Origin: a virus
Strand: one strand, 5' to 3'
IMG/VR virus record: IMGVR_UViG_3300021964_000026
Coordinates: 1-64,000 of that record
Length of the DNA stretch: 64,000 nucleotides
The notes under the pieces are model-generated. The model searched no databases. It was not told the origin of the DNA and saw nothing but the letters and a program-made list of their open reading frames with translations. Position numbers and translations under genes: made by a program. Below are positions 37,922-62,717 of the stretch, piece by piece (the first letter of the stretch is position 1; every line of letters begins with the position of its first letter).

Positions 37922-37922
37922 T

Positions 37923-38129
37923 TTATTCAACTCCATGCTGTTTGAACTTGGGTTTTGTCAATCTTGACTCGCGCCAAAGTCGCGAGCAAAGTGGACACTC
38001 CCAAATGAGGACACGCGTATCACGGTCATTAACATATCGCCCTTCAAGGCGTTGCGCGAGAATCGTCTCGTGACAACCGGGACACGATTGACTTAAGCGC
38101 GCCTTTAGTTTTCCCAAAACTTCCACCAC
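37923..38129 (-). CDS. Zn-ribbon protein (start uncertain)
   Basis: CPGC...WECPLC. Confidence 0.7.
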   Translation of the reverse strand: MVEVLGKLKARLSQSCPGCHETILAQRLEGRYVNDRDTRVLIWECPLCSRLWRESRLTKPKFKQHGVE

Positions 38130-45800: not shown

Positions 45801-48800
45801 GGCGCAGTTGCCGAAAAAATCGTAGAAGAAGCAAGCGCGGCACTCCACCACGGAACGGTCACGGTGTGGCCCGGTGTTGAGCGGTGGAACATGTTTGGAT
45901 GATACGGTAGACTGCGACGCGTAAATGCACCCGAAGAAGTAGCATTGACACCGAATGGGTTGCTCAATCCGAGTGTGGGAATGTTGGTGAATTGTTCGCG
46001 CGTTGATGGGTCAATGTCCAAAATAACTTCGTTGAGGTAGATTTCACAACCGCGCACATCAGCCATTGTTGCTTCGGAAAGAATGAGGTCGCGGTCTTGC
46101 ATAGCGACGACCGTAGCAAACAGTTGGTCGGTGAGTGTGCGCACCGTTGTGTTTGTCCCACCGGGGTCTTCGGGAGCATCGGTTGAAGCAAAGGTCGTGT
46201 TCTCGTTGTTCCCCATGAATTGTTTGCTGAACAGGTTGGGTTGGATAACAATTTGATATGCGCCTACTTCTGCTGGGTCGGGGAAATGGAAGGCGGTGTT
46301 GTAGTTGGTTCCGCTTTCAAGTTGAATGCGATGACCACCAGCGGCGTTGCATGATGCGCTGTCATCTGCGACGCCGTATCCATCAAAGCGCAACTTGGTT
46401 TCAGTCAACAGCGTAAATCCATCACCGTGAATATCGCTTGGTGGGTTAGACGCGGTTGTTCCCGAAAACCACACAAGCGGGTTGGCAATGGTCTTGGTTG
46501 TGTCGTAGTCGGTTGCACCAAAGCATGCGCGATTTGCTTGGTAGATTTGTTGATAGAGTGGGTGTGCGAGGTGGCCGGGAAGCATCGCCATCGTCGGCAT
46601 GACATAGTGGTGTCCCATGCGCGGTAATGGCATGGGCGTCAATTTGTTTGCCGCGCGCACCAAAGTTGCTGGGCTTGTTCCAGCCGCGAGCGAAGTCCAA
46701 TCGGTGTGTGCTTTGTCGGGGCTGTTCCCACTCACTTCGGCGTGGTCACGCAATCTGCGCGCCGCAAACTGTCGTGTAGACCCAGCAGGGATGTAGTAAG
46801 ACGGTTTGATGGCGTCGTCTTCTTTGGCTGTAAAATCGGGCGCGAAGACAACACCTGTAAATCTGTGATAGGTCACACCCTCAATCACCACGGTTGTGTT
46901 GTTAGTAAAAGACGCGATTGTGCCATTGACTGACAGGAAGTAGCGTCCGTCCGGTGTCGGGTCTTGCTTCCAAATGTCAGCCGTGATGCTTTCATTGACG
47001 GTGATGTAGTCGTTGCCTTTGTCTTTGAATGTCAATCTGTTGAGCGTCATAGCATTGCTGACGATGCGCAACGGTTCGCGTTCCGTATAGGTGTAGCCCA
47101 TCTTGGTGATGTGAAAATACAACGCGCGGTCGTGAGGCTCGTATGCGGTTTCAAGAATGTTGGTTGATTGCAACGCGTTGTTGCTGTCGGGGAAGTTGTT
47201 TGGGTTTTGATTGATGTGTTCGTAGCCATCCTGTTCCCAAAACGGTTCTGTTCGCGGTCGGTCGCTGTCCGATTCAAACGCTTGAGACACACCGCTTACC
47301 GGTTGACTTGGGTGTTGCAACCCGCCACCACCCAGCGTTTCATGCTGGTAGGCTTGTAGGCGGTCAAAACCAGCGCGCACAAGAATGTTGCCGGGGATGT
47401 CATCGTGATTCGGCAACTGAATGCGCATGTTAGGAGAAACGCCCGAACCTGCGAGTGCGGGTGCAAGACCTTCGTTTTCTCGGTCATGCACCATTTCGTA
47501 GTCGCGAACAACAACACCCAGCGGTGAACCACCGGTCAGTCGGTGTTGTTGACCCGTATCATCAACAACTATGATTTCGGTGAATTGGATTTCTTCGTTC
47601 GGTATGTTAAGCGCGTTTCGGACTTCGTAGGGGTATTGTTCAGCGAGTGCTGGATGAGCCAACTCTTGTGCTTGGATAATTGGATACATTGCCGCGTTTG
47701 TTGTTTCAAACGAAAAGCGCACATTGCCGTAGATGGTTTCACCAAAGCGAATGTATTCCGACCCAACCTTGTGAACCTGCCACGGCATTGAACCAAGCCC
47801 TCGCGCGTTTTGAGCAGGGAGTGTAAGGTTGCCTCCACCCATCCGTTTCCAAACAACATGCTCGGCGAAGAAATTGCGTGCGGCTAATCGTCCTTTGTAG
47901 TGCGCGTAAATGCCATCGCGGTGTGTTGAATAAGTATCGTAGCCTGTGTTTTCGGTCTTGGCTGTTTCCGAATCAAACAGATTATCGTTTGGGTAGTGCG
48001 CGTTGTTGGGGTTTTCGGTCTTGTCAAAGAACAAATCACCGGTAGGATAGAGGCAGGTTTCAGCCTGTGCAAGTTGTGAAGCAGTAGCCGCCGATGTTGT
48101 CCACAACGGGTTTGCGTCTGTTGGTTCAGTCATGGTGGTGTCGTGCATTGCTTCTACATGCGGACCAGCGTTTGATTCAGCGTTGTAGCGGTCGTTGTTG
48201 AAACGGTCGTTGTGATACGCTGTGATGGTCCCGCCTTGCGTTCCTCCCCACTTGAGTTGAAGCATGTCTCCGCAGGTTTGTTGTCCGTTGCGCGCGGCTT
48301 TAGCAATGATAGGCAGGTCGCCTTCATAAGAAATAACAACAAAGTGTCGTTGATGCATTCCGACTGCATTGTGCGTGCTGGTTTTTGGCTCCCAAATATA
48401 ATCGCCGTTTTCCAACTCTCCACCTTCTGCTATGCGCAAAACCCACTCCATTGATTGAGGGTTATGACATGCGGTAGCCGCACCGTAAGGCGTAAAGCCC
48501 AACATTGGATGCCATGCGCCAAGACCAGCCGCAACTTTGTTGCTGATGTTGAGACTGTTGAGGTAGGAATAACGCTCACCATGCCAGCCGACAGCACCAA
48601 CCGCGCGTGTTCGGTCTATGGCATCAACAACGCCGTTAAAGTGGACTTGTGTTGACGCATAATGGTCAAACGGGCTGTTTGACATTTGCCCCGACGAAGT
48701 TGCTCCTGTGGCTCGCGAGCCGTCAACTGCGTTTTGAAAGCCGTTATCCCAGCGCAAATTGCCAGCCTTTGACCAAACAAACACTTTGTGACCTTCTCCC

Positions 48801-51800
48801 GTTACGCTGGTTACATCGCCCGTTCCGCTAAGGCTTGGTTGCTCCAATCGGTTTTGTCCGTTTCGGAAGTTCGCTCCAAGAATAAATGTTCCTTGCGCGA
48901 CATCGTAGTTTGAATAATACCCGTAGTAAGAATTGACTCCGTTGCTCACGCGTATCCAACCGTTTTCGGGTAGCGTCATCGGCAACGCTGTTCCTACGGA
49001 GACATGTCCGCCGCTTCCAGCGTCGGTGTAAGTGCCGAGGTCGCCAACATCAATCCAACCATAGCGGTCTTGCCGTTGCGCGTCTTGGAATGAAGGAAGG
49101 AAAGAACCACCAAGAGCCTTGAGATTTGACCGACCGGGCCATGTATTGATTGCCGCGGCAACAACTGCACCCAACTCTTCGCTGTTTTGACAGCGCGTTG
49201 CATCAATCAAGAACACATCGTCGGGAACATCAGCATCCAAGTCATGGTCGTAGTCTGTTAGCACTTGAGAACCAACCCGGAACATTGTAGCGTTGAGTCC
49301 AAGTCGGTCAATGTATTGCACCGACGCGTTTGCTGAATTGACCAGCGTGGCCGTGACAGGATGCGGTGGGTTTTTGCGCACGCTATTATCAAACCATGAC
49401 CCTCCAACCGTATAACCTCCGTCAAGGTGGAAAATCAGTTTGTCTTCACGGAAGTTGCTATGCGATGTTGGAAATCGCGCAACTGCGGTATAATGAGAAA
49501 ATGGATGACCGTATTCGTTCGCCGCGCTTTGCACCACCGAGTTTGCACCGAAAAAATGACTGCTAACATAACGCGCTTCAGTAGAAACAGTTTGATTAAA
49601 CGCGCTGTTTGGAGAACCATAAGACGGCTCCCAATGTCGGAATGTTTCGTATGGGAACACATTGTTTGCACCGTATGCATTGGTTGGTGGCAAAAATTGA
49701 TTTGCCGCGCCGTTAAGTGTTCCATTGCTCAACTCGTTAGGGAAGAAATAACCCGACTCATTGCCTTGATTGAAGGTTGTTGCCATTGCACCATCAAGTG
49801 AGCAGTATTTTTTGAACGCGGCAGTCCATTTTGCCGACGGCTCAACTGATGTCGTTATGCTCGCGCTTTCTCCACTCCAATGTTTCGGGACTGCTTGACC
49901 CGGACCGAACACCATGTAGGCTACGCTGTTGGTTGAATCCGTGTAGCGTGCGTATGGATGAGCAAACCGAAGCACGACGGGTGTTGGTTGCGCGATGTTG
50001 ACATTGGTGTAGGTGGTGTCGGGAATGGTGTGCGTGTTGTTATTGCCGTCAATGTCGGTGTTGAGAATGGCGTCTTGGTTGGCGAACGGTGGAGTCGCTT
50101 CTCCGCGATGTTGATTTGTAAGAACAGTAGCAGGGAACATAGCAAACAACGCGGTTGTGTCAAGAAGCGCGTAGGCTCCCATTTTTTCTCCGATGTCTTG
50201 TAGACCAGCACTCCCCGTTGGACCGCTTGAGTAGGGGTGTTTGTTGTGTGTGCTATAATCTACACGCGACCCATCGTTGATGTCCATAACAACACCGCTG
50301 AATCCGCCTCCAAAGTAAAGCGGCACATGGTGGTCAATGCTGTCTTGTGCGCCTCGGAAGTAAAGCAACGGGTTGCCTTTTCTGTTTGCGCGTAGACGCA
50401 ACCCTTGAATGTCATTGACGAACTTGAATCGTTGAAGGATGAGATTGGTGTCAAGTGAGTCTTTGAAATCACCTTTGCTGTCGTCGTGATGCCACGCGAG
50501 TAGATGTCGCGCTACATCAGTTGGTGCATCAATTGAACTCAACGCGGCGCAATGAATGTAAGTGTCTTCGTCAATGTCCATGCGTTTGAACGGCGACCAT
50601 GAGCCGTCAATGGTTGTGCTACCTCCGAACTCGGTTGATGAGTCTTGATTGAGATTGCTACCACCGCTGATGTGTTGCAATTGCCACGCGTATTGACGAC
50701 CAAGAACAGCAAAATGATGTGGGTCGCGCATTTCAATTTGATAGGTGTCATACGCTGTTCCACTTGGGTAGGCTAAACTTCCGCTTTGCGGGTCAAGTTC
50801 GTAAGTTGCCGCTTCAAGCGAGGGCGTGATGTGGTCGCCTTCATATCGCGTATATTTGTCGCCACGCAAATGCTTCTGCCAATCGTCAGTAGGCACAGCG
50901 TTGTTTGTTTGGTCAATGAGAATCGGTGTTGCTGTGTTTGCGTTGCTTCCTTTGTAGCGCGTAGCAATGTTGAGAAGCGTGTAAGGGATGTATCCAACTT
51001 CCTCCATTCCTTCGCCTACATCATTTCCAAGACCACCGAATTGTCCTCCCGAACTAAAAGAAGCGGAGATAGTATCGTGTTCTTGACTGCTGGCTTGCAA
51101 ACCCCAATCGCGCGATAAAGAAGCGGAAAACAATTTGTTCAACGGGATGATTTCTTTGTCGCTATTGAACTTGGTGATTTTGATAGCAGTCTGTGCGGCT
51201 TCACCCATGACTTCACCGTAAGTGCGACCGTCGGGTGCGCGCAAGTGTGAACAGTCAAAGTATTGGTCGTCTTCGTTTGGGTCTGCTGTGAAAGCGAAAG
51301 CGGTTGCCGCGGCAATCAATTCGTCAGTTACGATGGTTGTTTGGTTGAGGTGAGGACTGATAATAACAGGAGCGCGTGTGTTAGACACGCTGGTAGGTCC
51401 ACACTTGTCTTGACTGTTAAACCAAGTTGCAACCATTGAATCTGCTTCTACACCTTCAACTCCACCGAAGATGTGAGGACCGCCGCGACCGTTGTGTGTG
51501 CGCGAAGTGTATGAAAAAACGACACCAACTTTGTCGTATTGACTTCTTGATGATGGGATAGCCAGCCAAACCAACCCACTATCGGGGAAGCCCATCCAAC
51601 CCAACACATCGTCAACATCCGGCAAATGATGCCAAATACCGCCGTTGTGATAGCCGTAGCCGCTCGCGTCATGAATAGCCAACTGATTGTTTGCCATTGC
51701 TGTGTCCATTGTGACAGCGTATCCAGCGTTAGGTGTGTAGACGCCGCGCCATTTGTTGCCGCGCCAATTATAGTCTGTCGTTCCTGTGTAAAAGAACGGC

Positions 51801-54800
51801 GTTCCATCACCACCCTTGCCCCACATGTTTGCACCGATGGTGAAACCACCTTGTGCTATATCGCGGTCGTCAAAATGAATGAGCGTTTCTTCATCAATTG
51901 TGTTTGGCATAACCGAGTTGCGATGTGAAAATGATTCACCCGCGCGTCGGTAGATGTAGCGAAGAATGTGAGACTTACCACGATGGTCAACCATTTTCAA
52001 TCCGTAGAGTGGTTGAGTTCCAACTGATGCGTCGTTGACTTCTGTTGTCGGAACATACGAGTTGTATGTTTCAAAATAGGTGTCGCCTGTGGCGAGATAG
52101 TTGCCGTAAACCGAAGAAACAAAGCGTCCAGCACCCTTTCCGTCTTCACCAAAACCCCAATCGCCAGCATCGGGCGCAAAGCCGGGAACACCTGCGGCAA
52201 CGATACCGCCGAAGTTTACTCTTGCGCGTGCATAACTGCCGGTCTGTAATCCTTCACGGATGGTGAACTTTTGACCGCCGTTTTCAAACGATTCCATTGC
52301 ACCTGTGTTTGAAGCGCGTCCTGTGGTTGTTCCTGTGTTGGGTGTTTCAAACCCTTCTGCGCTGTTGAAGTTGGTGGCGTATCCGAGGTGGAGGTTGGTG
52401 AAAAACTCGTCCGAGTCTTCATCCAATGCCACATATTCGCGTAGAGTTGTGATGGGCGCAAACGGTTTGCCGTTTTTGTCAATCGGCATGGGTGCAGGGT
52501 GCATGTTTTCACCTGCAATTTCGGGTGGCGCGCAGTAGAAGTTGCGGAAACGACCACCATGCCCGATGAGGAATTGCGGTTTGTATTCTGCCTGTGCTTT
52601 GCTGTTGTCAAGCCACGCGCAAAAATTGCGGCTGGTTGCACCGGGAACGGTGCTGTGAACAACGATGCTGTATCCCTCATTGCCGTTTGCATCCTCAACA
52701 ACGCGACCTAAATGAGCGCGTAGGTATCCCATGTGAGAACCACGGTCAAATGATGTGAAGGCTGTGCGCGTGTTCCAAAACGGCGCGGGGTCATGCGTAG
52801 AGCCGGTCACGGCAAAGTCCGCGTGTTGGTGTGCGGATGTTGCGTCTGTTGGCTCTTGAGTGTCAATACCGCCTACGGAAATAGCGCGACGGTTGATGTC
52901 AAATCGTTCACCTTCACCTGCGTATTGGTCGGATGGTCGTCGTTGACTGCTACGACCGTTGAGCGCACCGCCTTGATTGATGAGACGAACAACTTCGCGA
53001 GCCGCCGCTTCAATGTCCGTGACACCTTCGCGCAACCCAATTTCACCCATGTCAATTGTGAGGCGGCGAACGAAGTCCATATCGGTCCAATGAGGTAGTT
53101 GGTTCAACCGAGCATCAACGATGGTGTTGTTTGTAGCACGCTTACCCTTCAAACAAAGGAAGGCCGAAATAACGCGTGTGCCTTCCGGTGTGTCAAAGAA
53201 AGTAGCCGAAAACTGATAGTGTCCACCGCTGTCGTCAATGATGGCCTCGGATGTGTCATGGTCAATTGTTTCGGCGTGGCGTAGAGCGGCTTTGTCAACA
53301 TCAACAGTTGACTGCGCAACGCGTCCTTGACCAAACTGCGTTGTTTCATCACCAAATGCTACGGTGTGTTCAGTTTGCCGCTTTGGTTTATTGTGTTTGG
53401 TTGCCGCAACATTGGATGTTGACATGAAGGATTCATCCATGAGCCACCACGATTTGTGTGCGTAGGCTCCTTCAACAAATTGCGACTTACCTTCGTCTTT
53501 AATGAGGTTGTAAACAACGGTGTTGATGGTTTCCGCATGCGTGCTTGATGTCGTGGCTTTGTTTTTGTCTTGCGTCTTGAATCCAGCCGCTACATCAAGA
53601 CCTTCAATCGTTGGTGTTGTTGCACTCGTTTGAACTTGCATGTGCAAGTCGTGGAACGCGATGAACTCACGGTCATGCTCTACATCGTAAAGCAACACTC
53701 GCGCGTGTGTTTCTGTGCTAAGGTAGGGGTCAAGGAACGCAACAACGGGTGCAGATGTGCTGTGTCCAAGTTCAGTCCAATTGAGTTCAATGGTTTTGTT
53801 CACATGTTGAACAAAGTTGCGAGCAGTTTCAAGACAAGTATCGCCAATAAGGAAGTTTTCAACAGGGAGAGTGTCGCGTGCTTCAACTCCAAGCGCACCC
53901 TTTCCACCATTGAAGCCCGACCATACTTCATATTCGTTGTAAACACCGCGCGATTTACAAAACATTCCCTCAATTGCGTGAGGATTGGTGTAGTGCATGT
54001 TCATCCAAACCGTATCACCGTAGCGCAATCCGCCGGGGCAGTAGGGGTTGTTCCATGTTGCGTTCGCGATACCGTCGGGTTGCTTGAGAGGTAGTTGAGT
54101 TGCGCTTGTTGCATAAATGCCAATGACGGTGAGTGTGTCCCCTGCCGCAAGACTTGGTGCGGTGCTGTCAAGAACCGGGTGAGCCACGACCTGCATTTCT
54201 CTTACCGTGGTTGTTGAGTTGTAAGTAATTTGATACTTACGACCTGTGGCTTCGTTAATAGCGGCAAACGCGTAGTTGGTTGGCAGATGTCCTTTGGGTA
54301 AATCACCTTCAAAAATAAAGGTCTGTGATGGTGAAAGCGGGTTAAGAAGAATAAGTTTGAGACGCGCACCTTTTGATTGAATGCGAGACAGATGAGGATT
54401 GGCTGTTGGTCCAGCCTTAAACTCAACCGCGCTGACATATTGGCGTAGGCCGTAGTCAAGGTTGCCTCCCTGTGTCATCACGCTTCCTCGGTCGTAGTAG
54501 AACGGTCGTCGGTATTCTTGAGCAGAAGAGTTGTAGTTGTCGTCGCCTGTAAGCGGGTATCCGTCTCCGTTTGGCAAAACACCAATGGTGATTTGAGAAC
54601 CAACATCAAGCAAAGTGAAGAAGTCGGGACTTGAATGGCTTGCGAGTCCACTCAAAGAAAAATAACTGCCGCCCGCGTATTCGTAGTAAGCCCACTCACC
54701 GTTTCCAAGCACAACTTTACGCGCGCGTCGTGTGCTAACACCTTTGACCGTCCCAGCCGCGTTGAAGTTTGAATTGGGAATGCGCCCACTTCCTTCTGCG

Positions 54801-57800
54801 ATGTAGACTCTCCTGTTGCTTCCTTGTCGGTCGTATCGCAACACCGTGGCGCGGATAGGCAGATTGTTGCTAAAACGATACTGATACTGTCCAAAGGCTT
54901 CGTAGTCGTTAGCGGCGTAGTTGGGCGCACGACGACCCACAGGTGATGGGTTCCAAGCCTGTGCTGTCATTGTTGCATCCAAATGCAACTTCATGCTGTT
55001 GTCGGGGCCGGGGAACACACCTGCGTCTCGGTCTTCAAAGAATTGTTGAGGGAAAAGGGGGATTTCAACAAGCGCGCGAGTGCTGGCGTATTGTGTTCCC
55101 AACTGATAGTCGTGTTGAACAGAACCAATGGACTGAAACAGCCGGTCGTTGACGGTTGTTCCATCCGCGCATATTGAAGAAGTTGCAAACAACGGGTCAA
55201 GCAAAACCAATTGACCTTCCTCAATTCTGCTTTTTGTGACCCAATCGGCAAACGATGCCGCTTCTTGTCCGTTAGCGAGTTTAAATGTCCCTGTTCCATG
55301 AACGAGTGTTCCGCTTGTAAAAGTGAAAGCGGTTCCGGTTTTGCTTGTGTATTCAGCACTTGCACCGTTCTGCAAATAAATACGACCGGTAGCAGGGAAG
55401 CAATAAGTCCCCCATGTTGCCAGCGATGTTCCCGCATTGTTCAATGCTTGAACCGACACGGTTCTCGCGGTGCTGTCCACTTCATTGATTTGCGCGGCAC
55501 AATCATGACGCGTATTCCATCCGATGCGCGATAATGTCGCGGGGTCCCATGTTGGTTTTGTGTTGACAGCACCTTGACCAGCACCACCGAGCGTGACCGA
55601 GACGACAGGCGCGCCCGGTTGAATCTCTTTGACGATGTGCGAATCGGGACTTCCATCACCGCTATACGCCACAGTTTGGTCGGCGACATCGGACATCATA
55701 CCCTGCCCCTCCATGATGAGGTAGCGTCCAGCACCGCTATCGTTGACTTGCATTGATGTGATACGCGCGGTAGATTGAATGTATTCAATGGTAAAGTAGG
55801 TGTTATCCGTAAAGTCCACAGTCGCGGGTGTTGCTCGCGATAACTGCATGGTGCGCTCGCGCTTTGTTGGTTGAACGATAAAGAGGTAGGAGTCGCCCTC
55901 TTTGTCGTTGTCAATGATGTCAAACATTTCAAACGCGCCGCCTTTTTGTGATGCGAACTGTTTGCTTTCTTGATAGTGAGTGGGTGATTCACCTACGGGT
56001 GGGTCGCTTGCGCCTCGTTGCATCGGTTGAAGGTGCAATTTGTGATAGGCTGACGGGTGGACTGTTGTTCCCACACCTTGTGGTGGCTTTCTTGGTTCAT
56101 CATCGGATGTGCGCGGTGTGTAGTTGCTTGGGAGGTGCGACTCATCCAATTCATCGTTGTAAGCAATACCGCCTGTGTTGTCTCCGATAAGGTGGTGCGG
56201 CTTCATAACAACCTGTGCGTTGCCTACATCGCTTGAAGAAGCAACAATCACACCACCGGGTGCGTGGATGGTCGCGTTAGCACCAACAGCGTCAGCAATG
56301 TGTTCGGCTACGCGTTTTCCGTCAATCAAAGAACCTCCATCGGGGACAGTCTTGGTGATGAGAAGGGCTGGGTTGCTCAATCCCATTTTGCCGCCGGTGA
56401 GGTCAACAGCGTTGTAGTGGATTTCAACATAACCAGCGGTGATACCCGACACTTCAAGAAGCGCGACACGAGATTCGGTTTCGGGTGTGAGGTGTGTTTT
56501 GTAGGCCGCATCGCTGGTTGAATCAACACCAATGCCGCCACCCTTCAACAAAAACGGTTGAATGTCATCAACTGAAATCGCAATGACACCCGACCGCTTT
56601 CCATCAAGCGATGACAAACCGTTATCCACCACACCGTTTGTTGTTGCTGATGTTCTAACATCCATGATTCGCGCGTTAAACGCTGTGTGTGTCAACGACA
56701 CTTTGCTGTTAATCGGCATCACCTCTTTCAGTCCGAGGTATGAGCCAGCGAAGGTCACAAGAACATCATCGGCTATACCGTCAATGGTTCGCGTGATTTC
56801 CTGTTCATGGATGGGTGGAAGCATCCGCAAAAATGGGTGTCCTTCCCTGTGAGTCAATGTGTGTCGTCCTGTGTGGCCTGTCTTGAAGCGTTCAGCGATG
56901 GTCCACGATGTCGGCGCAAAACTGTTGGTGTTGACGGCAAGAGCGCGCGAATACATGAAGCCGTGAAACTCATTCGGGCTTTCATCAATCACCATCGCAC
57001 CCGTTCGGTCAATTGCTTGACTCCCTGTGCCGAGCCGTTGAAACGGCTTTCCACTCTCGCTGTCAATCAACAAATCGGAGCGGATGAGAACCATTGCTGA
57101 ATCGTTAGCGCGATGATAAGTTGCATCGTATGCTGTGCGTGAATGAAGCACACCGCGCGAACCTGTGTCGGCTGAAACACCAAAGTCAAGGTGGATGCTG
57201 TCAACGGTGATGGTTCCGTTGGTGTTGATTTGCTTGAGACGAACGCGTTCGGGTGGGCTGTTGTTTTGCACACCTGTGAGAACATCTGTTGCTGTTGGAT
57301 TGATGAGCAGGTTGAATGGCGTGTGAGCCACGCTAATAACCTGCGCTCCCCCGCTATGCGCGGCGTTAGCAACGCGGTAGTTGCCGAGGCTTTCCAGCGT
57401 GTAGTTGCTCGCGAGCGTGTCGGACTTACCGCTTACCGTTTCGTAAAGCGTTTGACAAGCGGTGGCCCCAATGGTGATGGTGGTGTCGCCAGCAGACACA
57501 TTTGAAGTCGCGTAAAACACAGTTTCGTCAACGCTCACCGGCTCTTCAAAACGCCAAAGGCCCAGCGTGCTTGTAGAAAGCATGCATGGTTTAGCGCGCG
57601 ATTCAATTGTTGAAACATCAGCCTTCCAATGAACGGATTCAATGTAGCCGCGATACTGACCACCTTCACCACCAATGAACAGGTCTTGGTCGTTGACATT
57701 GCATGTGTAGGATTTGTTGAGTTTGTGCGACGCCATCAGTTCGCCGTTGACATACAGTTTAACCTGCTGTCCGTTGAACTCACCGGAGATGTGATACAAT

Positions 57801-58222
57801 TCTCGCTGTCCAGCGTTGTAGCCCACATCATTGCTGATGAAGGAACCCGCCGCCGTTGGATAATTGTTCGCGCTTGCGGCGATAGCGGAGGTTTTGTTGG
57901 TGAGTTGCACTTTAAACGAAGCGACACCGGGTGCATCAACGGTCCCCATTCTCAACTCAAACAGCCCTGCTTTGCTGGCAATAACACCACCGCAGTCGGG
58001 CGAAACCCAAGCCTCAACCGTGAACTGCTTGAGTGTTTGATTGTTGGCGTTGGCGAAACGATGGTTGTCGCCGTCTTGAAGAACAGGAGCAGATGAGCGC
58101 GCAACGCTACCGTTGAGTTCGCGCTTATGGCCTGTTTTGACAAAGTTGCCCTGTGGACAAACAACGCTGTCGCTTACGCCGTTGAAAAACAACGCGTGGC
58201 TTGACAGACCAATAACCGCCAC
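42893..58222 (-). CDS. Giant 5109-aa virion protein with N-terminal LamG/concanavalin A-like domain
   Basis: Uninterrupted 15.3-kb ORF; FTVEAWV...YHISGEFNGQQVKLYVNG...YRGYIESV...GLWRFEE fits LamG. Confidence 0.85.
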   Translation of the reverse strand: MAVIGLSSHALFFNGVSDSVVCPQGNFVKTGHKRELNGSVARSSAPVLQDGDNHRFANANNQTLKQFTVEAWVSPDCGGVIASKAGLFELRMGTVDAPGVASFKVQLTNKTSAIAASANNYPTAAGSFISNDVGYNAGQRELYHISGEFNGQQVKLYVNGELMASHKLNKSYTCNVNDQDLFIGGEGGQYRGYIESVHWKADVSTIESRAKPCMLSTSTLGLWRFEEPVSVDETVFYATSNVSAGDTTITIGATACQTLYETVSGKSDTLASNYTLESLGNYRVANAAHSGGAQVISVAHTPFNLLINPTATDVLTGVQNNSPPERVRLKQINTNGTITVDSIHLDFGVSADTGSRGVLHSRTAYDATYHRANDSAMVLIRSDLLIDSESGKPFQRLGTGSQAIDRTGAMVIDESPNEFHGFMYSRALAVNTNSFAPTSWTIAERFKTGHTGRHTLTHREGHPFLRMLPPIHEQEITRTIDGIADDVLVTFAGSYLGLKEVMPINSKVSLTHTAFNARIMDVRTSATTNGVVDNGLSSLDGKRSGVIAISVDDIQPFLLKGGGIGVDSTSDAAYKTHLTPETESRVALLEVSGITAGYVEIHYNAVDLTGGKMGLSNPALLITKTVPDGGSLIDGKRVAEHIADAVGANATIHAPGGVIVASSSDVGNAQVVMKPHHLIGDNTGGIAYNDELDESHLPSNYTPRTSDDEPRKPPQGVGTTVHPSAYHKLHLQPMQRGASDPPVGESPTHYQESKQFASQKGGAFEMFDIIDNDKEGDSYLFIVQPTKRERTMQLSRATPATVDFTDNTYFTIEYIQSTARITSMQVNDSGAGRYLIMEGQGMMSDVADQTVAYSGDGSPDSHIVKEIQPGAPVVSVTLGGAGQGAVNTKPTWDPATLSRIGWNTRHDCAAQINEVDSTARTVSVQALNNAGTSLATWGTYCFPATGRIYLQNGASAEYTSKTGTAFTFTSGTLVHGTGTFKLANGQEAASFADWVTKSRIEEGQLVLLDPLFATSSICADGTTVNDRLFQSIGSVQHDYQLGTQYASTRALVEIPLFPQQFFEDRDAGVFPGPDNSMKLHLDATMTAQAWNPSPVGRRAPNYAANDYEAFGQYQYRFSNNLPIRATVLRYDRQGSNRRVYIAEGSGRIPNSNFNAAGTVKGVSTRRARKVVLGNGEWAYYEYAGGSYFSLSGLASHSSPDFFTLLDVGSQITIGVLPNGDGYPLTGDDNYNSSAQEYRRPFYYDRGSVMTQGGNLDYGLRQYVSAVEFKAGPTANPHLSRIQSKGARLKLILLNPLSPSQTFIFEGDLPKGHLPTNYAFAAINEATGRKYQITYNSTTTVREMQVVAHPVLDSTAPSLAAGDTLTVIGIYATSATQLPLKQPDGIANATWNNPYCPGGLRYGDTVWMNMHYTNPHAIEGMFCKSRGVYNEYEVWSGFNGGKGALGVEARDTLPVENFLIGDTCLETARNFVQHVNKTIELNWTELGHSTSAPVVAFLDPYLSTETHARVLLYDVEHDREFIAFHDLHMQVQTSATTPTIEGLDVAAGFKTQDKNKATTSSTHAETINTVVYNLIKDEGKSQFVEGAYAHKSWWLMDESFMSTSNVAATKHNKPKRQTEHTVAFGDETTQFGQGRVAQSTVDVDKAALRHAETIDHDTSEAIIDDSGGHYQFSATFFDTPEGTRVISAFLCLKGKRATNNTIVDARLNQLPHWTDMDFVRRLTIDMGEIGLREGVTDIEAAAREVVRLINQGGALNGRSSQRRPSDQYAGEGERFDINRRAISVGGIDTQEPTDATSAHQHADFAVTGSTHDPAPFWNTRTAFTSFDRGSHMGYLRAHLGRVVEDANGNEGYSIVVHSTVPGATSRNFCAWLDNSKAQAEYKPQFLIGHGGRFRNFYCAPPEIAGENMHPAPMPIDKNGKPFAPITTLREYVALDEDSDEFFTNLHLGYATNFNSAEGFETPNTGTTTGRASNTGAMESFENGGQKFTIREGLQTGSYARARVNFGGIVAAGVPGFAPDAGDWGFGEDGKGAGRFVSSVYGNYLATGDTYFETYNSYVPTTEVNDASVGTQPLYGLKMVDHRGKSHILRYIYRRAGESFSHRNSVMPNTIDEETLIHFDDRDIAQGGFTIGANMWGKGGDGTPFFYTGTTDYNWRGNKWRGVYTPNAGYAVTMDTAMANNQLAIHDASGYGYHNGGIWHHLPDVDDVLGWMGFPDSGLVWLAIPSSRSQYDKVGVVFSYTSRTHNGRGGPHIFGGVEGVEADSMVATWFNSQDKCGPTSVSNTRAPVIISPHLNQTTIVTDELIAAATAFAFTADPNEDDQYFDCSHLRAPDGRTYGEVMGEAAQTAIKITKFNSDKEIIPLNKLFSASLSRDWGLQASSQEHDTISASFSSGGQFGGLGNDVGEGMEEVGYIPYTLLNIATRYKGSNANTATPILIDQTNNAVPTDDWQKHLRGDKYTRYEGDHITPSLEAATYELDPQSGSLAYPSGTAYDTYQIEMRDPHHFAVLGRQYAWQLQHISGGSNLNQDSSTEFGGSTTIDGSWSPFKRMDIDEDTYIHCAALSSIDAPTDVARHLLAWHHDDSKGDFKDSLDTNLILQRFKFVNDIQGLRLRANRKGNPLLYFRGAQDSIDHHVPLYFGGGFSGVVMDINDGSRVDYSTHNKHPYSSGPTGSAGLQDIGEKMGAYALLDTTALFAMFPATVLTNQHRGEATPPFANQDAILNTDIDGNNNTHTIPDTTYTNVNIAQPTPVVLRFAHPYARYTDSTNSVAYMVFGPGQAVPKHWSGESASITTSVEPSAKWTAAFKKYCSLDGAMATTFNQGNESGYFFPNELSNGTLNGAANQFLPPTNAYGANNVFPYETFRHWEPSYGSPNSAFNQTVSTEARYVSSHFFGANSVVQSAANEYGHPFSHYTAVARFPTSHSNFREDKLIFHLDGGYTVGGSWFDNSVRKNPPHPVTATLVNSANASVQYIDRLGLNATMFRVGSQVLTDYDHDLDADVPDDVFLIDATRCQNSEELGAVVAAAINTWPGRSNLKALGGSFLPSFQDAQRQDRYGWIDVGDLGTYTDAGSGGHVSVGTALPMTLPENGWIRVSNGVNSYYGYYSNYDVAQGTFILGANFRNGQNRLEQPSLSGTGDVTSVTGEGHKVFVWSKAGNLRWDNGFQNAVDGSRATGATSSGQMSNSPFDHYASTQVHFNGVVDAIDRTRAVGAVGWHGERYSYLNSLNISNKVAAGLGAWHPMLGFTPYGAATACHNPQSMEWVLRIAEGGELENGDYIWEPKTSTHNAVGMHQRHFVVISYEGDLPIIAKAARNGQQTCGDMLQLKWGGTQGGTITAYHNDRFNNDRYNAESNAGPHVEAMHDTTMTEPTDANPLWTTSAATASQLAQAETCLYPTGDLFFDKTENPNNAHYPNDNLFDSETAKTENTGYDTYSTHRDGIYAHYKGRLAARNFFAEHVVWKRMGGGNLTLPAQNARGLGSMPWQVHKVGSEYIRFGETIYGNVRFSFETTNAAMYPIIQAQELAHPALAEQYPYEVRNALNIPNEEIQFTEIIVVDDTGQQHRLTGGSPLGVVVRDYEMVHDRENEGLAPALAGSGVSPNMRIQLPNHDDIPGNILVRAGFDRLQAYQHETLGGGGLQHPSQPVSGVSQAFESDSDRPRTEPFWEQDGYEHINQNPNNFPDSNNALQSTNILETAYEPHDRALYFHITKMGYTYTEREPLRIVSNAMTLNRLTFKDKGNDYITVNESITADIWKQDPTPDGRYFLSVNGTIASFTNNTTVVIEGVTYHRFTGVVFAPDFTAKEDDAIKPSYYIPAGSTRQFAARRLRDHAEVSGNSPDKAHTDWTSLAAGTSPATLVRAANKLTPMPLPRMGHHYVMPTMAMLPGHLAHPLYQQIYQANRACFGATDYDTTKTIANPLVWFSGTTASNPPSDIHGDGFTLLTETKLRFDGYGVADDSASCNAAGGHRIQLESGTNYNTAFHFPDPAEVGAYQIVIQPNLFSKQFMGNNENTTFASTDAPEDPGGTNTTVRTLTDQLFATVVAMQDRDLILSEATMADVRGCEIYLNEVILDIDPSTREQFTNIPTLGLSNPFGVNATSSGAFTRRSLPYHPNMFHRSTPGHTVTVPWWSAALASSTIFSATAPWKGSQHYHPDDYYLFCRSTLGAVGTQTTMLGYPSHYLDVYTDYLTSLTPTATVEHGDQSNSKLYVRNNNLFPVAGADYYAQHLVIIDDSGVEQTASYEDRGYISGLSASGPVVFNSVTAITSGFWSAAVQGATVRIKSKFNNLGAGEVYNKSQASVATRNLPQLLSGTRDTNSLHLPDAYLCLWHYNLGRPMTWFSDSRTNKGDAAVDKKAYNHAPEHYEMIHYHEFTYAMSDGPFKFRMKSPSNVDGSIADTYSVAALTNQAGIDGKSRKYNLGAFWPGGHRFGAQMSSLSLYGTAAPGWRDKWDDNNIKQVSDAKGLTVANADVETTTDTIQTKATHKQAGWGYRISVRQPYNRPRWSIKANQGLRDPHIYYHFQAEGPFISSQNATTRTNVQNGSANSSTTETTKQNYVGIIERQTNASALIGSDLKFQQVRYSDGRRMTKGFGCAVRNIRNPTTALRKFHADSPTGHRAGTDADDQRVNLALAQAHYMIDWWGNTTGEEVRRFPVRGFGIRPSWDPEDAYRATDRTKVAETMFTDSNLRSAETHIHFFDPATAKRVGDRGDGRGVRYPTYFNEDILQDVSEDMRPFGLVLSHHTSEPPFMSGFLRPSNVQLESHEVARGISAKLELAGDDGLLKREANVGTNVEKSNFTFMQEPIAKSKPRIGIDGMSVVENDGQMSPRYVVASTEANSVHTDRQVGQRFILAGGVSTANRAVDNLNLHTLNLSSAKQVLKFGTTHGIPPLGGTYIMEVSSDGEAISDLNWGASSGVTTNPYQTSNHDSTSYRTNTKDTTIKFLVRPVRVLDNQHIELFRDDTTHVLSATAAGRYGVFVYDTPNARAADAASSYMRNSNPAPSNPPYAPVYLFDLTTSTSDPTSNGPQIPGSEASDFTTLATQPVARMIVTNNTLQHFRGDAARRQSVNEGQDTFVRLDYTVQPRYTQSLYAGDKLNTSNHSSEGDRTDNGVGA

Positions 58223-58223
58223 T

Positions 58224-59387
58224 TCACGACCCCACTATGAAATCAATTGGCATGAAGGTCAATGAGCCTTCGTAAACATTCTCGCCAGCCATGTAGTTGA
58301 ACGACATCGCGACAACTGTTCCGGAGATGCCTGTGAACTTACTTGTCGGGTTGAACTCAACACCGACGGGTTGATTGTTTGCCAACGCGTCTTGTTCGTC
58401 AGCATCCGCGCGCCCTGTGACCATGATGAGATTGCGTTCGGTGTAGTCATCGGAGGCGGCTGTGCTGGTGATGAGTGAGTTGTAAGGGATTTGGATACCC
58501 ACGATGTAGTCAGCCGTTTGTTTGTTTAAGAGACTCGCGTCTGCTTCAAAAATAGGGTCGTCGTCGGGTGTGTTGGCGATGGCTCCCGATGCACCAAGAA
58601 GGCTGGCGTTGCCGACATACGCGATGAGGTCTTGCAACTTATCACCCGCGCTACGGCACGACTTTGCTTGACCGCCAGCGCACACCTCAAACAACGGTGC
58701 TTTTGTAGCCAACCCCTTGCTGAAAAACGGTGTTTCGTTGTTGCCGCCAGCCCCTTTGTCCACTTGAGTGAAAGTGAGTTTTGCGTTGTTGGTCAATTCG
58801 CCGTTGCTGGTGGTGATAGTGAACGCGCTACTGAAAGTTGTGCCTGTGGTGCTGACTTGTCGCGGGCTAAAGTCGGCGGCTTCACATGCGGTCTTGACAG
58901 CCGCCGCCAAGCCATCGTCGGTGGTGATGCCTTGAATGCCAACGGTCACGGTGGGTGGAACATTGATGTCGCTATGGGACGCTGTGCTACTGTCAAATTG
59001 GATTTTGATTGGGTCGCGCGTTGTGTTCTCACCGGTGTAGGTTGATTCAATTGAAAAGGATTGACCGTTGAGGTCGCTCAATGAAACCGATGGACTGCTC
59101 CCACTCAAGTAGGATTGACGCGTTCCTCCGTCGCTGTTTGCTAACGCGCTAAAATCAATTGACGCTTTTGCCGCAACCGACTCAAACTCACTCGCCGCGC
59201 AATCGTCGTCAGCGAGAATGACATTGATTTTGAAGTCAGCCGTGACCATGTTGAGGTCAATACCGTAGCGTTCGCCAAGCACAGGCATTGGCATAACAGG
59301 AACGCTACGCGTGATGTTCATGCTGTAATCGGTCGCATCAACGGTCATGATGGTCCCGTCGTTGCGAATCAACCGTATTTTCGTCAA
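58224..59387 (-). CDS. Putative distal tail protein
   Basis: Immediately downstream of the tape measure gene; beta-rich. Confidence 0.55.
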   Translation of the reverse strand: MTKIRLIRNDGTIMTVDATDYSMNITRSVPVMPMPVLGERYGIDLNMVTADFKINVILADDDCAASEFESVAAKASIDFSALANSDGGTRQSYLSGSSPSVSLSDLNGQSFSIESTYTGENTTRDPIKIQFDSSTASHSDINVPPTVTVGIQGITTDDGLAAAVKTACEAADFSPRQVSTTGTTFSSAFTITTSNGELTNNAKLTFTQVDKGAGGNNETPFFSKGLATKAPLFEVCAGGQAKSCRSAGDKLQDLIAYVGNASLLGASGAIANTPDDDPIFEADASLLNKQTADYIVGIQIPYNSLITSTAASDDYTERNLIMVTGRADADEQDALANNQPVGVEFNPTSKFTGISGTVVAMSFNYMAGENVYEGSLTFMPIDFIVGS

Positions 59388-61087
59388 ACGCCCGACCTCC
59401 TGTTGCCGTGTGAGCGACCGCCGCGAGACATTTCAGCGCGAATAAGGTCGCCAATTTCGCGCGCAAGTTGCTTCTTATCGGTGCGGTCGGTCACGCCACC
59501 GACATTGATGTTGACCGTCATGCCACCACCACCACCCAAACCGATGCCTGTGGGGTTGTTCTTACGGTTGAGAGGCACGACAGCCTCCGGGCCATCCTCA
59601 CCAACCACCGCAAGCGTAGGGCTGGTCACGATGCCGCCTTCCGCGAGCAATGGGATTTTCGGTAAGCCCATTGTGCCGCCACCAAGAATCTCCGGCAGTT
59701 CAAACGAAAACTCTTCCGCGAAGTCGTTGTAAACGCCGATGATGCCGTTGAAAATGTCAAAGAATCCATCCTTTGCGTTGGTCCACATGCGCCCCGGCAA
59801 TTTCATGAAGTAGTCCAAAAGGCTCTCGCCACCATCTATCACATTTTCTTTTAAGGAAGTCAATGGTGTGAGCAACGCGGCAACAAGCCCCCCTACTAAA
59901 CCAACAACGACTCCGAAACCTGCTGTGAGAAGTCCGAACGCTAAGCCGAAAATCGCTTTGATAGTTGACGCGATAAAGGTCACAATTTCCGAACCGAGGA
60001 ACTTGATGAACTCCAACATCCCTGTAAGGAAGAGTGTGAATGTTTCCCAATTGCGAATAATGAAAGCAATGACGAAAAGAACCGCCGCGGTGATGGCCGC
60101 AGGGATAGCCAGCCCTGTTATCAAGAACAAGCCAACAAAGACAGCAAACGCGCCAAGAACACCAATAAGAACGCCTTTGATACCTTCACCAGCACCCATC
60201 GCGTAAGCAACAAGCGCGGCGATGCCACCAACAACAAGTCCAACACCAGCGACAATAGCACCAATGGTTCCTTGAATGGCTACTGCGGTTCCAGCCTTAA
60301 CCGCGGCAACAACTGTTTGAAGCATTAAGAAAGAACCAATGAGCGTCGCCAACACACCAACTGCGCCTACAACCGCGAGAACCACATTGTCAAACTCCGC
60401 GTTGAAAAGACGGTAAGCACCGACGGTGATAACAGCCGCACCAGCCAGCAAACCCATAGTTGCTCCAAGTGCGGCTGACGCAATACCCGCAGTCAACAAA
60501 GCCGCCGCGAGAACATCAAGCGCGGTTGCCAACCCACCCTCATCACCTTCACCTGTGATGACATAGACCAACCCCTGCATCGCATCGTGCAACGGCCCCA
60601 AGTCTTCGGTGTATGTAAGAAGCGGACTATTCGCGCCTTCAAACGCCAGCGATAAAGCGGCAAGCGCGAATCCAACAATGAGGAAAATGCTCACCAGCGA
60701 GAATGCCGACACCATGATGCGACGAAAGAGCGTGTTCTTCTTGTCCAACACCTTGTTGCCGAACTTGACTGCTACACCATGTGCAATGGTTGCCGCGGCC
60801 AATTTTTCCATCACGGTCATGTTGGCTTTCAAATCATCTCGCTGTTTGTCATTGAGGTTGGCAAACAACACGCCGCGTTTGACAACATTCACCATTGATT
60901 CAGCAAACCCTTGCAATTGAAGACGGATGGCGTTGAGTGGTGAGCGTTTTAGCGCGGTCGTGACCTTCTTCTGTTGCTTTTCAAACACGCCCATTTTCTT
61001 TGTCGCGTTCATGTTGAAAACGCCAAACTGTTCAAGCGCGACGGTGAGTTCATCCACTTGGTCTTTCAACTGCTGAATATCACTCAT
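59384..61087 (-). CDS. Tail tape measure protein
   Basis: A/G/L-rich with hydrophobic helices; C-terminal LAEGGIVTSPTLAVVGEDGPEAVVPL; follows the tail chaperone. Confidence 0.85.
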   Translation of the reverse strand: MSDIQQLKDQVDELTVALEQFGVFNMNATKKMGVFEKQQKKVTTALKRSPLNAIRLQLQGFAESMVNVVKRGVLFANLNDKQRDDLKANMTVMEKLAAATIAHGVAVKFGNKVLDKKNTLFRRIMVSAFSLVSIFLIVGFALAALSLAFEGANSPLLTYTEDLGPLHDAMQGLVYVITGEGDEGGLATALDVLAAALLTAGIASAALGATMGLLAGAAVITVGAYRLFNAEFDNVVLAVVGAVGVLATLIGSFLMLQTVVAAVKAGTAVAIQGTIGAIVAGVGLVVGGIAALVAYAMGAGEGIKGVLIGVLGAFAVFVGLFLITGLAIPAAITAAVLFVIAFIIRNWETFTLFLTGMLEFIKFLGSEIVTFIASTIKAIFGLAFGLLTAGFGVVVGLVGGLVAALLTPLTSLKENVIDGGESLLDYFMKLPGRMWTNAKDGFFDIFNGIIGVYNDFAEEFSFELPEILGGGTMGLPKIPLLAEGGIVTSPTLAVVGEDGPEAVVPLNRKNNPTGIGLGGGGGMTVNINVGGVTDRTDKKQLAREIGDLIRAEMSRGGRSHGNRRSGV

Positions 61088-61088
61088 T

Positions 61089-61382
61089 TCACCACCCCTC
61101 GCTGAACGGCATCGGGCCGTGTGTTGAGCCTACGCGTGTTTTGCTTTTTGCTCCATCGGTCGCCTTCTGCATTTCCTCGGCCTTCACGCGTTCCGAAGCA
61201 CTCGCCCAAACAAACGATGTTTCAAACGCGCTGATGCTCATGTCCCACACCTGTTGAATGCTGATTCCATAATGCTTGGCTACGAAATACGCCGCCGCAT
61301 CAAAGTTATGCGACAAGTCGGGCGATGGCTTTCGTAGAAACTGATAGGCTTCTTCTACTCGTCCGCCCCACCCGCTAAAGGG
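61089..61382 (-). CDS. Tail assembly chaperone frameshift extension (gpGT-like)
   Basis: -1 frame entered at slippery C CCT TTA (61382-61376); encodes YFVAKHYGISIQQVWDMS. Confidence 0.75.
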   Translation of the reverse strand, partial: PFSGWGGRVEEAYQFLRKPSPDLSHNFDAAAYFVAKHYGISIQQVWDMSISAFETSFVWASASERVKAEEMQKATDGAKSKTRVGSTHGPMPFSEGW

Positions 61383-61726
61383 TTCGCCAGCAGGTCTTGA
61401 GGTTGGGGCAACAACGCGGTGATTTGGTTCGCGATGAATGGCCGTAGCGACAGCATTTGCGGAATGGTGAGGCGCGGTTCTGTTTTCTCCACAGCCTCGG
61501 CAAACATGTATTTCCAATAGTTGGCGAGGTCAATATCAACCGAGCCAGCCGCGCTTAGGTTCACGAAAGTCTTGATTGCGTCTTGCAACTGCATGAAGGA
61601 GAGTTCCTTCACCCATACTTTCATGACCACTTCGGGGTCATTTTCGTCTGCTTGTATTTCATGCTCAACCGCTTGGCTACTCACCAAGAGGCTCATTGGG
61701 TCTGCTATTTTCGGCATTGTCATCAC
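61355..61726 (-). CDS. Tail assembly chaperone (gpG-like)
   Basis: Lies between tail tube and tape measure; has an in-frame slippery heptamer near its 3' end. Confidence 0.75.
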   Translation of the reverse strand: MMTMPKIADPMSLLVSSQAVEHEIQADENDPEVVMKVWVKELSFMQLQDAIKTFVNLSAAGSVDIDLANYWKYMFAEAVEKTEPRLTIPQMLSLRPFIANQITALLPQPQDLLANPLAGGADE

Positions 61727-62078
61727 TTACTCCCTCATCACTTGTCGCGGCCTCTTTGGAGGGAACGACGGCCTCGGCTTCAACTGCCTCTTTGGAGGGG
61801 GTATCGGCTTCGGTAAGGCGGGTAATGAGTTCCGCCTTTGTGCCTGTGACCGGTAGACCTCGCGCCCGTAGCAGGGCTTTGAGTTCGTCAACAGTCATGG
61901 ACTCGTAATTGGGTTCGTCAACTTCAACGGGTTGTTCTTCCGTCTGTTGCTCTTTGGGGAATGGATTGCCGTCGCTCTTGGCGGCTTCGGGGTTGAACAC
62001 TTCTTCAACGGGTTCAGCAATGAATGCACCTTCTGCAACCGCGCGAATACGCAATGGGCGGTTGCTACCAATGTGCAT
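61677..62078 (-). CDS. SAP-domain acidic protein
   Basis: YESMTVDELKALLRARGLPVTGTKAELITRL. Confidence 0.8.
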   Translation of the reverse strand: MHIGSNRPLRIRAVAEGAFIAEPVEEVFNPEAAKSDGNPFPKEQQTEEQPVEVDEPNYESMTVDELKALLRARGLPVTGTKAELITRLTEADTPSKEAVEAEAVVPSKEAATSDEGVSDDNAENSRPNEPLGE

Positions 62079-62086
62079 GTCGCGAT

Positions 62087-62236
62087 TCAAGCACCACACC
62101 CGCCTTTATCCATGCAGTCGGAACACTTGTTCTTCCCGCAGTTGTCGCAACACTTGCTCGCGCGGCAACCACTTTTGCCGCACTCGTCGCATCCATCACC
62201 TTTCATAATCGTCCAAGCATCGTTCATTGGGTTCAT
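62087..62236 (-). CDS. 49-aa Cys-rich metallothionein-like peptide with leader motif (not in the ORF track)
   Basis: MNPMNDAWTIMKGDGCDECGKSGCRASKCCDNCGKNKCSDCMDKGGCGA (9 Cys); AGGTGA SD. Confidence 0.7.
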   Translation of the reverse strand: MNPMNDAWTIMKGDGCDECGKSGCRASKCCDNCGKNKCSDCMDKGGCGA

Positions 62237-62237
62237 T

Positions 62238-62717
62238 TCATTCACCTAACCGTTGGACTCGTCGCATTGTTGACGCAGACGGCTCAAACACGCTTTGAGG
62301 GTTTTTGTCCATTGGGAATGCTTGACGATAGTCTGCACCTGCTCCCGTTTGTTCTGCTCTTTGAGCCAAACGCTGTTGTTTTGCATCGCGTCTTCGGTCC
62401 ATGAAACGCTGTTTTGGTGGTCGCGAAATCGCTGACTCTTCTTGTCCTGTGTGACCTAACGATTGAAACGAGCGTTCGTCACCGACAGATGGGTGTTGCT
62501 GACGCTCCGGCCTTCCTGCCCTGTATCCGTATTGTCCATAAGTCCGCATGTCTCTTGAAGAAGGATGTGTGTCGCCAGCATTGTAGGTTGCTCCGGGTTG
62601 TTGCACAAACTGTTGAGGTATCGTGCCTCCCGTTCCTAACCGATTCGTTCCTTGCATGTCTGCTTGTTGCTCCGGGTTTGCTTTCAACAATTTCCACGCT
62701 TCATTCATCGGATTCAT
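62238..62717 (-). CDS. Q/R/G-rich low-complexity protein with leader motif
   Basis: Starts MNPMNEAWKLLKA after a GAGGTGA SD. Confidence 0.75.
   Translation of the reverse strand: MNPMNEAWKLLKANPEQQADMQGTNRLGTGGTIPQQFVQQPGATYNAGDTHPSSRDMRTYGQYGYRAGRPERQQHPSVGDERSFQSLGHTGQEESAISRPPKQRFMDRRRDAKQQRLAQRAEQTGAGADYRQAFPMDKNPQSVFEPSASTMRRVQRLGE

Follow-up and report, generated by a model that had tools for sequence, protein, structure and literature searches.

A short peptide on many unrelated late proteins of magroviruses, a possible address for loading cargo into the capsid

The window, that is the whole stretch of DNA analysed here, comprises the first 64 kb of a viral genome of 102,931 bp recovered as one contig. 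The virus fits a magrovirus of Marine Group II archaea, an assignment that follows from its gene content and thermosome, both of which match the published magroviruses (PMC5434244). In the surface ocean, magroviruses rank with the most abundant viruses of archaea; they are uncultured and carry mostly orphan genes (PMC5434244). Gene orientation and the layout described for the group (PMC5434244) suggest that the replication module occupies the plus strand from 1 to 35.2 kb; the sole gene recognised there, by eye, encodes a chaperonin. From 35.3 kb onward a single long block on the minus strand forms the late arm. No relative of the region was found among GenBank phage records. The neighbouring genes that matter for the analysis are the following.

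33734-35230, in the putative replication module: thermosome-type chaperonin
42893-58222, minus strand: 5109-aa ORF in the tail part of the late arm
59384-61087, minus strand, late arm: tape measure
61089-61517 and 61355-61726, minus strand: two overlapping small ORFs, candidate tail chaperones
61677-62099, minus strand: SAP-domain (DNA-binding) protein (Pfam, E = 1e-16)
62728-64674 (in the window to 64000), minus strand: tail tube (Phage_tube_2, E = 5e-8)
69417-70565, minus strand, late arm: HK97-type capsid protein
70565-71995, minus strand, late arm: S78 protease-scaffold fusion
79140-80987, minus strand, late arm: portal
84709-86112, minus strand, late arm: terminase
late arm, minus strand: fibre-like protein

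The two small ORFs lie just upstream of the tape measure, in a layout that resembles a frameshifted tail assembly chaperone pair. The SAP-domain gene sits between them and the tagged genes described below, which is an odd site for a DNA-binding module. The 5109-aa protein shares 42-46% identity over 3800-5200 aa with its counterparts in two complete relatives, and two further giant ORFs, of 2015 and 2310 aa, lie beyond the window.

Two adjacent and otherwise unrelated genes, here called A and B, begin with a near-identical leader, hereafter the tag, as a preliminary description of this DNA had noted. The same description had placed further copies inside two proteins about 26 kb away, here C and D. 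The carriers and their tags in the window are listed below; bit scores are those of a tag HMM.

62238-62717, minus strand: protein A, 159 aa, tag followed by disordered, basic (pI 10) orphan cargo
62682-62717, minus strand: N-terminal tag of protein A, MNPMNEAWKLLK (22.4 bits; ATG 5 nt after GAGGTGA)
62087-62236, minus strand: protein B, 49 aa, tag followed by a 37-aa Cys-rich peptide (9 Cys)
62201-62236, minus strand: N-terminal tag of protein B, MNPMNDAWTIMK (23.8 bits; ATG 5 nt after AGGTGA)
36404-37936, minus strand: protein C, 510 aa, untagged low-complexity N-terminal module and tagged C-terminal module
36839-36874, minus strand: internal tag of protein C at residue ~355, LNVMDAAWALLK (14.3 bits)
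35357-36394, minus strand: protein D, 345 aa, basic (pI 9.3), multi-module, with phrog_6437 at residues 13-81
36365-36394, minus strand: MSDLWWRITK, tentative WW-type N-terminal tag variant of protein D (PSSM -3.2, rank 12 of 440)
35903-35935, minus strand: EPMDVVARLLK, decayed internal copy in protein D (regular expression only)

The start codons of A and B each follow a GGTGA Shine-Dalgarno sequence by 5 nt, and the start codon of B is 2 nt beyond the stop codon of A. A GTG at 62245 was considered as the start of B and rejected, since the Shine-Dalgarno sequence lies 5 nt before the ATG at 62236. The two tags, MNPMNEAWKLLK and MNPMNDAWTIMK, are separated by four synonymous differences. Protein A has no match in Pfam or PHROG and a single relative (70% identical) in an index of 5.8 billion proteins; a word-indexed protein search with the leader region returned 2 candidates only. 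B-like tagged Cys-rich ORFs occupy the same slot in relatives (for example, in L012 and L013).

The internal copy in protein C is real, scoring as a good match to the tag HMM, and the ~140 aa that follow it are homologous to tag-initiated stand-alone ORFs in relatives (e.g. in L008 and L009). The copy claimed for protein D stands in part: a regular expression finds it; however, it has lost the invariant Trp and gives no HMM match, and is best described as a decayed remnant. The N-terminus of the same protein, MSDLWWRITK, may be a WW-type variant of the tag, a reading kept tentative because of its weak PSSM score. Another WW-type variant, MSDDWWLLLK, opens the protein at 82542-83414, which starts with TTG (~83.4 kb). 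Protein D also gives weak GNAT-like matches, and two CxxC...CxxC stretches can be read from its translation. Beyond the window there are five more good copies (at 67852, 67369, 82853, 84029 and 84490) and a remnant in which Trp has changed to Met, in the protein at 83408-83833, where it precedes a DUF6321 domain. The genome thus holds 7 to 8 clear copies, plus the WW-type and decayed variants; about nine of its proteins carry the tag, all of them encoded on the late strand, in the interval from 35 to 85 kb. The tag HMM found no copy in the replication module.

Of the 440 segments of the proteome that are centred on Trp, the PSSM gives 14-22 bits to seven, 6.9 to the WW variant and 0 or below to the rest. 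As judged from sequence, a chance origin of the copies is excluded because of this gap in scores, the specificity of the motif within IMG/VR, and the random level of matches in cellular genomes (see below).

The consensus of the tag, derived from 56 unique copies, spans 12 residues: M-N-P-M-[NDE]-x-A-W-x-L-L-K. Met is present at position -6 in 42 of these copies, and a Shine-Dalgarno sequence 5-7 nt upstream confirms it as the start codon of N-terminal tags. Clade-specific variants of the tag also exist, for example AWS[IV][IL]K in the clade of L035-L039. The preliminary description had written the end of the motif as K-(A/G). Lys is followed by a variety of residues (G, A, E, M, N and others), and K-(A/G) is therefore not part of the motif.

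The suggestion that the motif would recur in related viruses is borne out widely. A scan of 116 related loci with the tag HMM (cut-off of at least 8 bits) gave 239 matches with a bimodal score distribution. Of the 136 unique copies among them, 81 are N-terminal, 11 near-N-terminal, 32 internal and 12 C-terminal, the last group lying 2-4 residues from the protein end. The modules that flank the tags fall into 67 clusters unrelated by BLAST and represent at least 50 unrelated families. In several loci (L053:1502-2540, minus strand; L051, L088, L091 and L111), proteins with a DnaJ-type CxxCxGxG zinc finger are encoded beside the fibre gene; they end in h-F-x-R-[GS]-N-P-M-x-x-A-W-R-L-L-K plus 2-4 residues and make up a C-terminal tag subfamily.

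Restriction to late genes, which had also been predicted, holds in the loci that could be oriented by the tube gene, where all 99 tagged ORFs lie on the tube strand. In addition, 47 IMG/VR loci fetched with the tail tube protein contain 82 matches to A-W-x-h-h-[KR], every one of them on the tube coding strand. In each of two complete relatives, of 107 and 101 kb, the late strand holds all 10 tags. The sole candidate exception to the rule is in the distant relative G002: a 283-aa ORF (L132:13605-14453, minus strand) that starts with MSRALEMAWMLLK, scores 10 bits and lies on the minus strand inside a plus-strand replication region. It has no Pfam match.

An exact DNA pattern for N-P-M-x-x-A-W-x-L-L-K occurs in 67 IMG/VR stretches, all of them magrovirus-like and all encoding homologues of proteins of this virus. 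They include distant groups, whose large late proteins and chaperonin show only 27-43% identity. The same pattern gave 15 matches in 596 Gb of cellular genomes, against about 17 expected by chance, and two of the 15, the only ones in context, are magrovirus fragments mis-binned into MAGs. Together, these searches show the tag to be specific, in terms of sequence, to the magrovirus clade. Mimicry of a host motif was considered and rejected, given the chance level in cellular genomes. The two mis-binned fragments are a 3.3-kb contig in a 'Methanobacteriota archaeon' bin (L118) and a 16.9-kb contig in a 'Parvibaculum sp.' bin (L130), the latter probably a binning error.

It was proposed earlier that selection acts on the peptide and not on the DNA, and the codon usage of 126 unique 36-nt copies agrees. 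Pro is encoded by all four of its codons, Leu by all six and Ala by three, and third-position entropy reaches 1.0-1.9 bits at positions with an almost invariant amino acid. Synonymous sites vary freely; therefore selection acts on the peptide. Conservation at the nucleic-acid level, for example as a recombination or translation signal at gene starts, is refuted by this analysis and can be set aside as next to impossible: the upstream Shine-Dalgarno region is indeed conserved, but copies also lie inside genes and at gene ends.

The 12-mer is amphipathic and has no hydrophobic stretch. It is predicted to be helical: in an AlphaFold2 model of the 286-aa protein E (66992-67852), which carries two tags, both are modelled as helices, with low pLDDT at the N-terminal tag and 65-77 at the internal one. 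The model is of a monomer and bears only on the fold of the carrier. A Sec, Tat or class III secretion signal was rejected as an identity for the tag, which has neither an h-region nor a twin-Arg and is also found at C-termini.

The proteins that carry the tag have some properties in common. The fraction of disorder-promoting residues is 0.57-0.65 in seven of eight carriers of this virus and 0.51 in the eighth (protein H), compared with 0.41-0.50 in the core structural proteins. About half of the carriers are basic (pI 9-10), and the core proteins are acidic (pI 4.4-6.1). Many carriers are Cys-rich or contain CxxC pairs. Pfam and PHROG scans of 30 carriers gave almost no matches, which makes the carriers orphans; the sole matches are DUF5872, DUF6321, phrog_7595, phrog_6437 and a weak DnaJ-type CxxCxGxG. 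A carrier in L085 that looks like an ADP-ribosyltransferase matches nothing in Pfam or PHROG. The idea of a RiPP leader was discarded: proteins as long as 520 aa begin with the tag, and modifying enzymes are not encoded adjacent to it. Protein B alone resembles a leader with a Cys-rich core.

How the tag is joined to its carriers is best seen in the homologues of protein E. Their alignment reveals a conserved ~110-aa module that starts with the tag. This module is a stand-alone gene in eight aligned relatives, with an N-terminal tag and a strong AGGAGG Shine-Dalgarno sequence; elsewhere it follows one of three unrelated N-terminal modules within a fused, longer protein. A split of the gene immediately past the tag in L015 leaves the tag at the C-terminus of the upstream piece. 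The phrog_7595 and DUF5872 domains are tagless in other phages; here the tag precedes the phrog_7595 domain, and another copy in this genome comes after the DUF5872 domain. These stand-alone, fused and split arrangements indicate that the tag was gained by fusion and is not a relic of one diverging family. The gene positions are more regular than the genes themselves. In 22 of 32 relatives, 1-3 tagged genes, varied in size and family, occupy the slot directly downstream of the tube gene, and tagged genes also adjoin the capsid protein gene, the terminase gene and tail genes. The module clusters, the strand bias and the codon variation support the earlier description of a portable peptide on unrelated small or low-complexity late proteins.

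Several address peptides of viruses and compartments offer a comparison. The capsid-targeting sequence (CTS) of the T4 internal proteins is about 10 aa long, N-terminal and removed by the gp21 prohead protease, and its carriers are encoded in the polymorphic internal-protein locus of T-even phages (PMC9958956). The magrovirus tag is likewise a short, helical (by prediction), portable leader common to unrelated, fast-changing small late proteins, and 81 of its 136 unique copies are N-terminal peptides on such proteins. In contrast to the T4 sequence, it is also internal (32 copies) and C-terminal (12 copies), and it is borne by about 10 carriers per genome in several slots. The host is archaeal, and the head is of the HK97 type with an S78 protease-scaffold fusion, which again differs from T4. 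By inspection, the tag does not resemble the T4 leader. In phage P1, the N-terminal signal of DarB is sufficient for placement in the head (PMC9024508). As proposed for the tag, this is an N-terminal address in a phage without a separate scaffold gene; however, it belongs to a single protein and not to many families, and has no sequence similarity to the tag. Encapsulin cargo-loading peptides are short, lie at either terminus, bind the inner face of an HK97-fold shell, tolerate changes of position and are sometimes repeated. The tag, too, is a position-tolerant terminal peptide on diverse cargo, being found at N-termini, C-termini and in linkers, and on either piece at a gene split. Encapsulin peptides differ in being Gly/Ser/Leu-rich and extended, not a Trp helix, and encapsulins are cellular compartments without DNA. 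Two short C-terminal elements, the capsid-targeting tail of the maturation protease of HK97 and the coat-binding helix-turn-helix of the P22 scaffold, dock inside HK97-fold procapsids and can carry foreign cargo, but each belongs to one protein, whereas the magrovirus tag is on many. It appears that the tag differs from known virion and capsid address peptides by its position independence, the number of its carriers and its setting in an archaeal virus.

The preliminary description had also expected the motif near maturation sites of the capsid, scaffold or portal proteins. This expectation fails, in that neither the HMM nor the PSSM gives a match there and only generic [ILV][IL]K triplets are conserved in the core proteins. 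The tail of the scaffold, ANMSWDDVHRLAxKAL, is highly conserved and by eye has a loose N-x-[AS]-W-x-x-[LV]-[KH] likeness to the tag. Mimicry of this tail was rejected for this genome, where the stretch ANMSWDDVH scores -12.4 (rank 91 of 440) and true tags score 14-22.

On our analysis, capsid targeting as in T4 is still the single reading that suits the tag best. In its specific form, the tag would be a docking helix, independent of position, by which variable cargo, be it disordered, basic or zinc-binding, enters the procapsid; we put this reading forward tentatively, with a chance of being right slightly short of even. The helix would consist of an Asn-Pro N-cap, a hydrophobic face formed by Met, Ala-Trp and Leu-Leu, and a Lys at the end. 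Through it, all carriers may bind one conserved virion-assembly partner, which in turn might most probably be the interior of the HK97-fold procapsid, with the capsid protein, the scaffold or the portal as the docking site. A single magrovirus would in this way bring about 8-12 accessory proteins into its particle, small and for the most part disordered, basic or zinc-binding, and this cargo could be delivered along with the DNA. Carriers that are small and disordered or basic would be suited to packaging with DNA and to passage through the tail. New cargo would be recruited by fusing the tag to any module, which would lead to rapid turnover of tagged genes in fixed late-operon slots.

When this virus is compared with a distant relative that also bears the tag, the capsid protein (72%; 72-81% across the comparisons made) and the portal (66%) are the best conserved of the core proteins, as a conserved receptor would need to be; since high conservation of these proteins is expected anyway, this is weak evidence for a receptor role. 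The weak points of the procapsid reading are that tagged genes also stand beside tail and terminase genes, that the capsid, scaffold and portal proteins are tagless, and the G002 exception. Taken to the scale of the clade, a position-independent peptide code would load dozens of interchangeable families into an HK97-fold capsid for delivery to Marine Group II archaea, which we regard as possible, the balance lying somewhat against it.

The location of the tagged genes can also be read in favour of a partner elsewhere in the particle or on its assembly route, be it the tail (its lumen, tape measure or tube), the baseplate or giant proteins, or an assembly chaperone. The best-conserved tagged slot is directly between the tube gene and the tail chaperone and tape-measure genes, other tagged genes come after the fibre gene at the end of the operon, and some carriers (in L103 and L067) have Gly-zipper segments like those of tape-measure proteins. 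Nevertheless, tagged genes cluster by the capsid protein and terminase genes as well, and across the clade the tag is better conserved than the tail proteins, the tube being 38% identical and the tape measure <30%. A partner of this kind is in our estimate unlikely.

Short helical motifs at termini or in linkers are typical of linear motifs that bind hubs, and this virus encodes a thermosome-type chaperonin (33734-35230). The tag might then bind a hub that is not part of the virion, be it a host protein or the viral chaperonin, and the carriers would be late effectors or clients and not packaged cargo. The chance level of the motif in 596 Gb of cellular genomes speaks against host mimicry, and the restriction of carriers to the morphogenetic strand is likewise at odds with such a hub. 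As for the chaperonin, its type varies among magrovirus groups and it is missing in about half of them (PMC5434244). We give a hub outside the virion a rather slim chance.

Cleavage requires separate consideration, since the preliminary description had supposed processing after Lys. The data give this no direct support: the P1' residue is not conserved, and in the 12 unique copies that lie 2-4 residues from a C-terminus a cut after Lys would achieve nothing, so cleavage is not needed. Trimming after Lys by the S78 prohead protease would be compatible with the docking-helix reading and is a somewhat unlikely addition to it, outside the core model, which the data do not require. A stronger version, in which the tag is mainly an S78 prohead protease site, cut after Leu-Leu-Lys to split multi-module proteins or remove leaders and with no role in addressing, is improbable. 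The HK97 protease cleaves after Lys, and internal tags lie at module junctions. Moreover, conserved hydrophobic-hydrophobic-Lys triplets are found in the protease-scaffold (IILK/G near the N-terminus, FRILK/ED at the end of the S78 domain and NVIK/G in the scaffold, the slash following Lys), and the N-arm of the capsid protein contains GDILK/AD. However, such triplets are common by chance, four being present in 476 aa against 2-3 expected by a rough hand estimate, and the putative sites in the core proteins are without the invariant Ala-Trp and Asn-Pro-Met. The variable P1' and the C-terminal tags, with only 2-4 residues past Lys, also count against it. The literature on halovirus protease specificity yielded nothing usable.

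A further possibility, which we consider very improbable, is that the tag is a self-associating sticker helix by which disordered carriers form an internal network, resembling an inner body or a scaffold condensate. Carriers are largely disordered, and two-tag carriers exist both here (proteins D, E and F) and elsewhere (L103, L044 and L067). Against this, two strong tags are present in only 6 of 233 tagged ORFs, and in the AlphaFold2 model of protein E the two tags are not reported as one packed, confident unit.

The main texts of the two magrovirus papers (PMC5434244 and PMC11706807) do not mention the motif, and we found no paper on capsid targeting in archaeal viruses. The tag can be read from sequence and brings about 10 genes in each genome, and no fewer than 50 families clade-wide, together as one functional class; it is thus a first handle on the orphan-gene dark matter of magroviruses. 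Should the tag be a packaging address, the proteins delivered into the host would be defined by it, and HK97-type particles would gain a loading peptide. A capsid-loading code, if true, would be the viral counterpart of encapsulin loading and the first cargo-addressing system known in an archaeal virus, and the injected-protein arsenal of an uncultured virus group could be defined from sequence alone.

One block of the late arm brings several carriers together. At 82.5-84.6 kb of the genome (L002:542-2547), four small basic proteins are encoded between the terminase gene and the HNH and portal genes. The block includes domains known in other phages (phrog_7595, DUF6321 and DUF5872) as well as a Cys-rich 67-aa protein, and each of its proteins has a tag or a tag remnant at a domain boundary.
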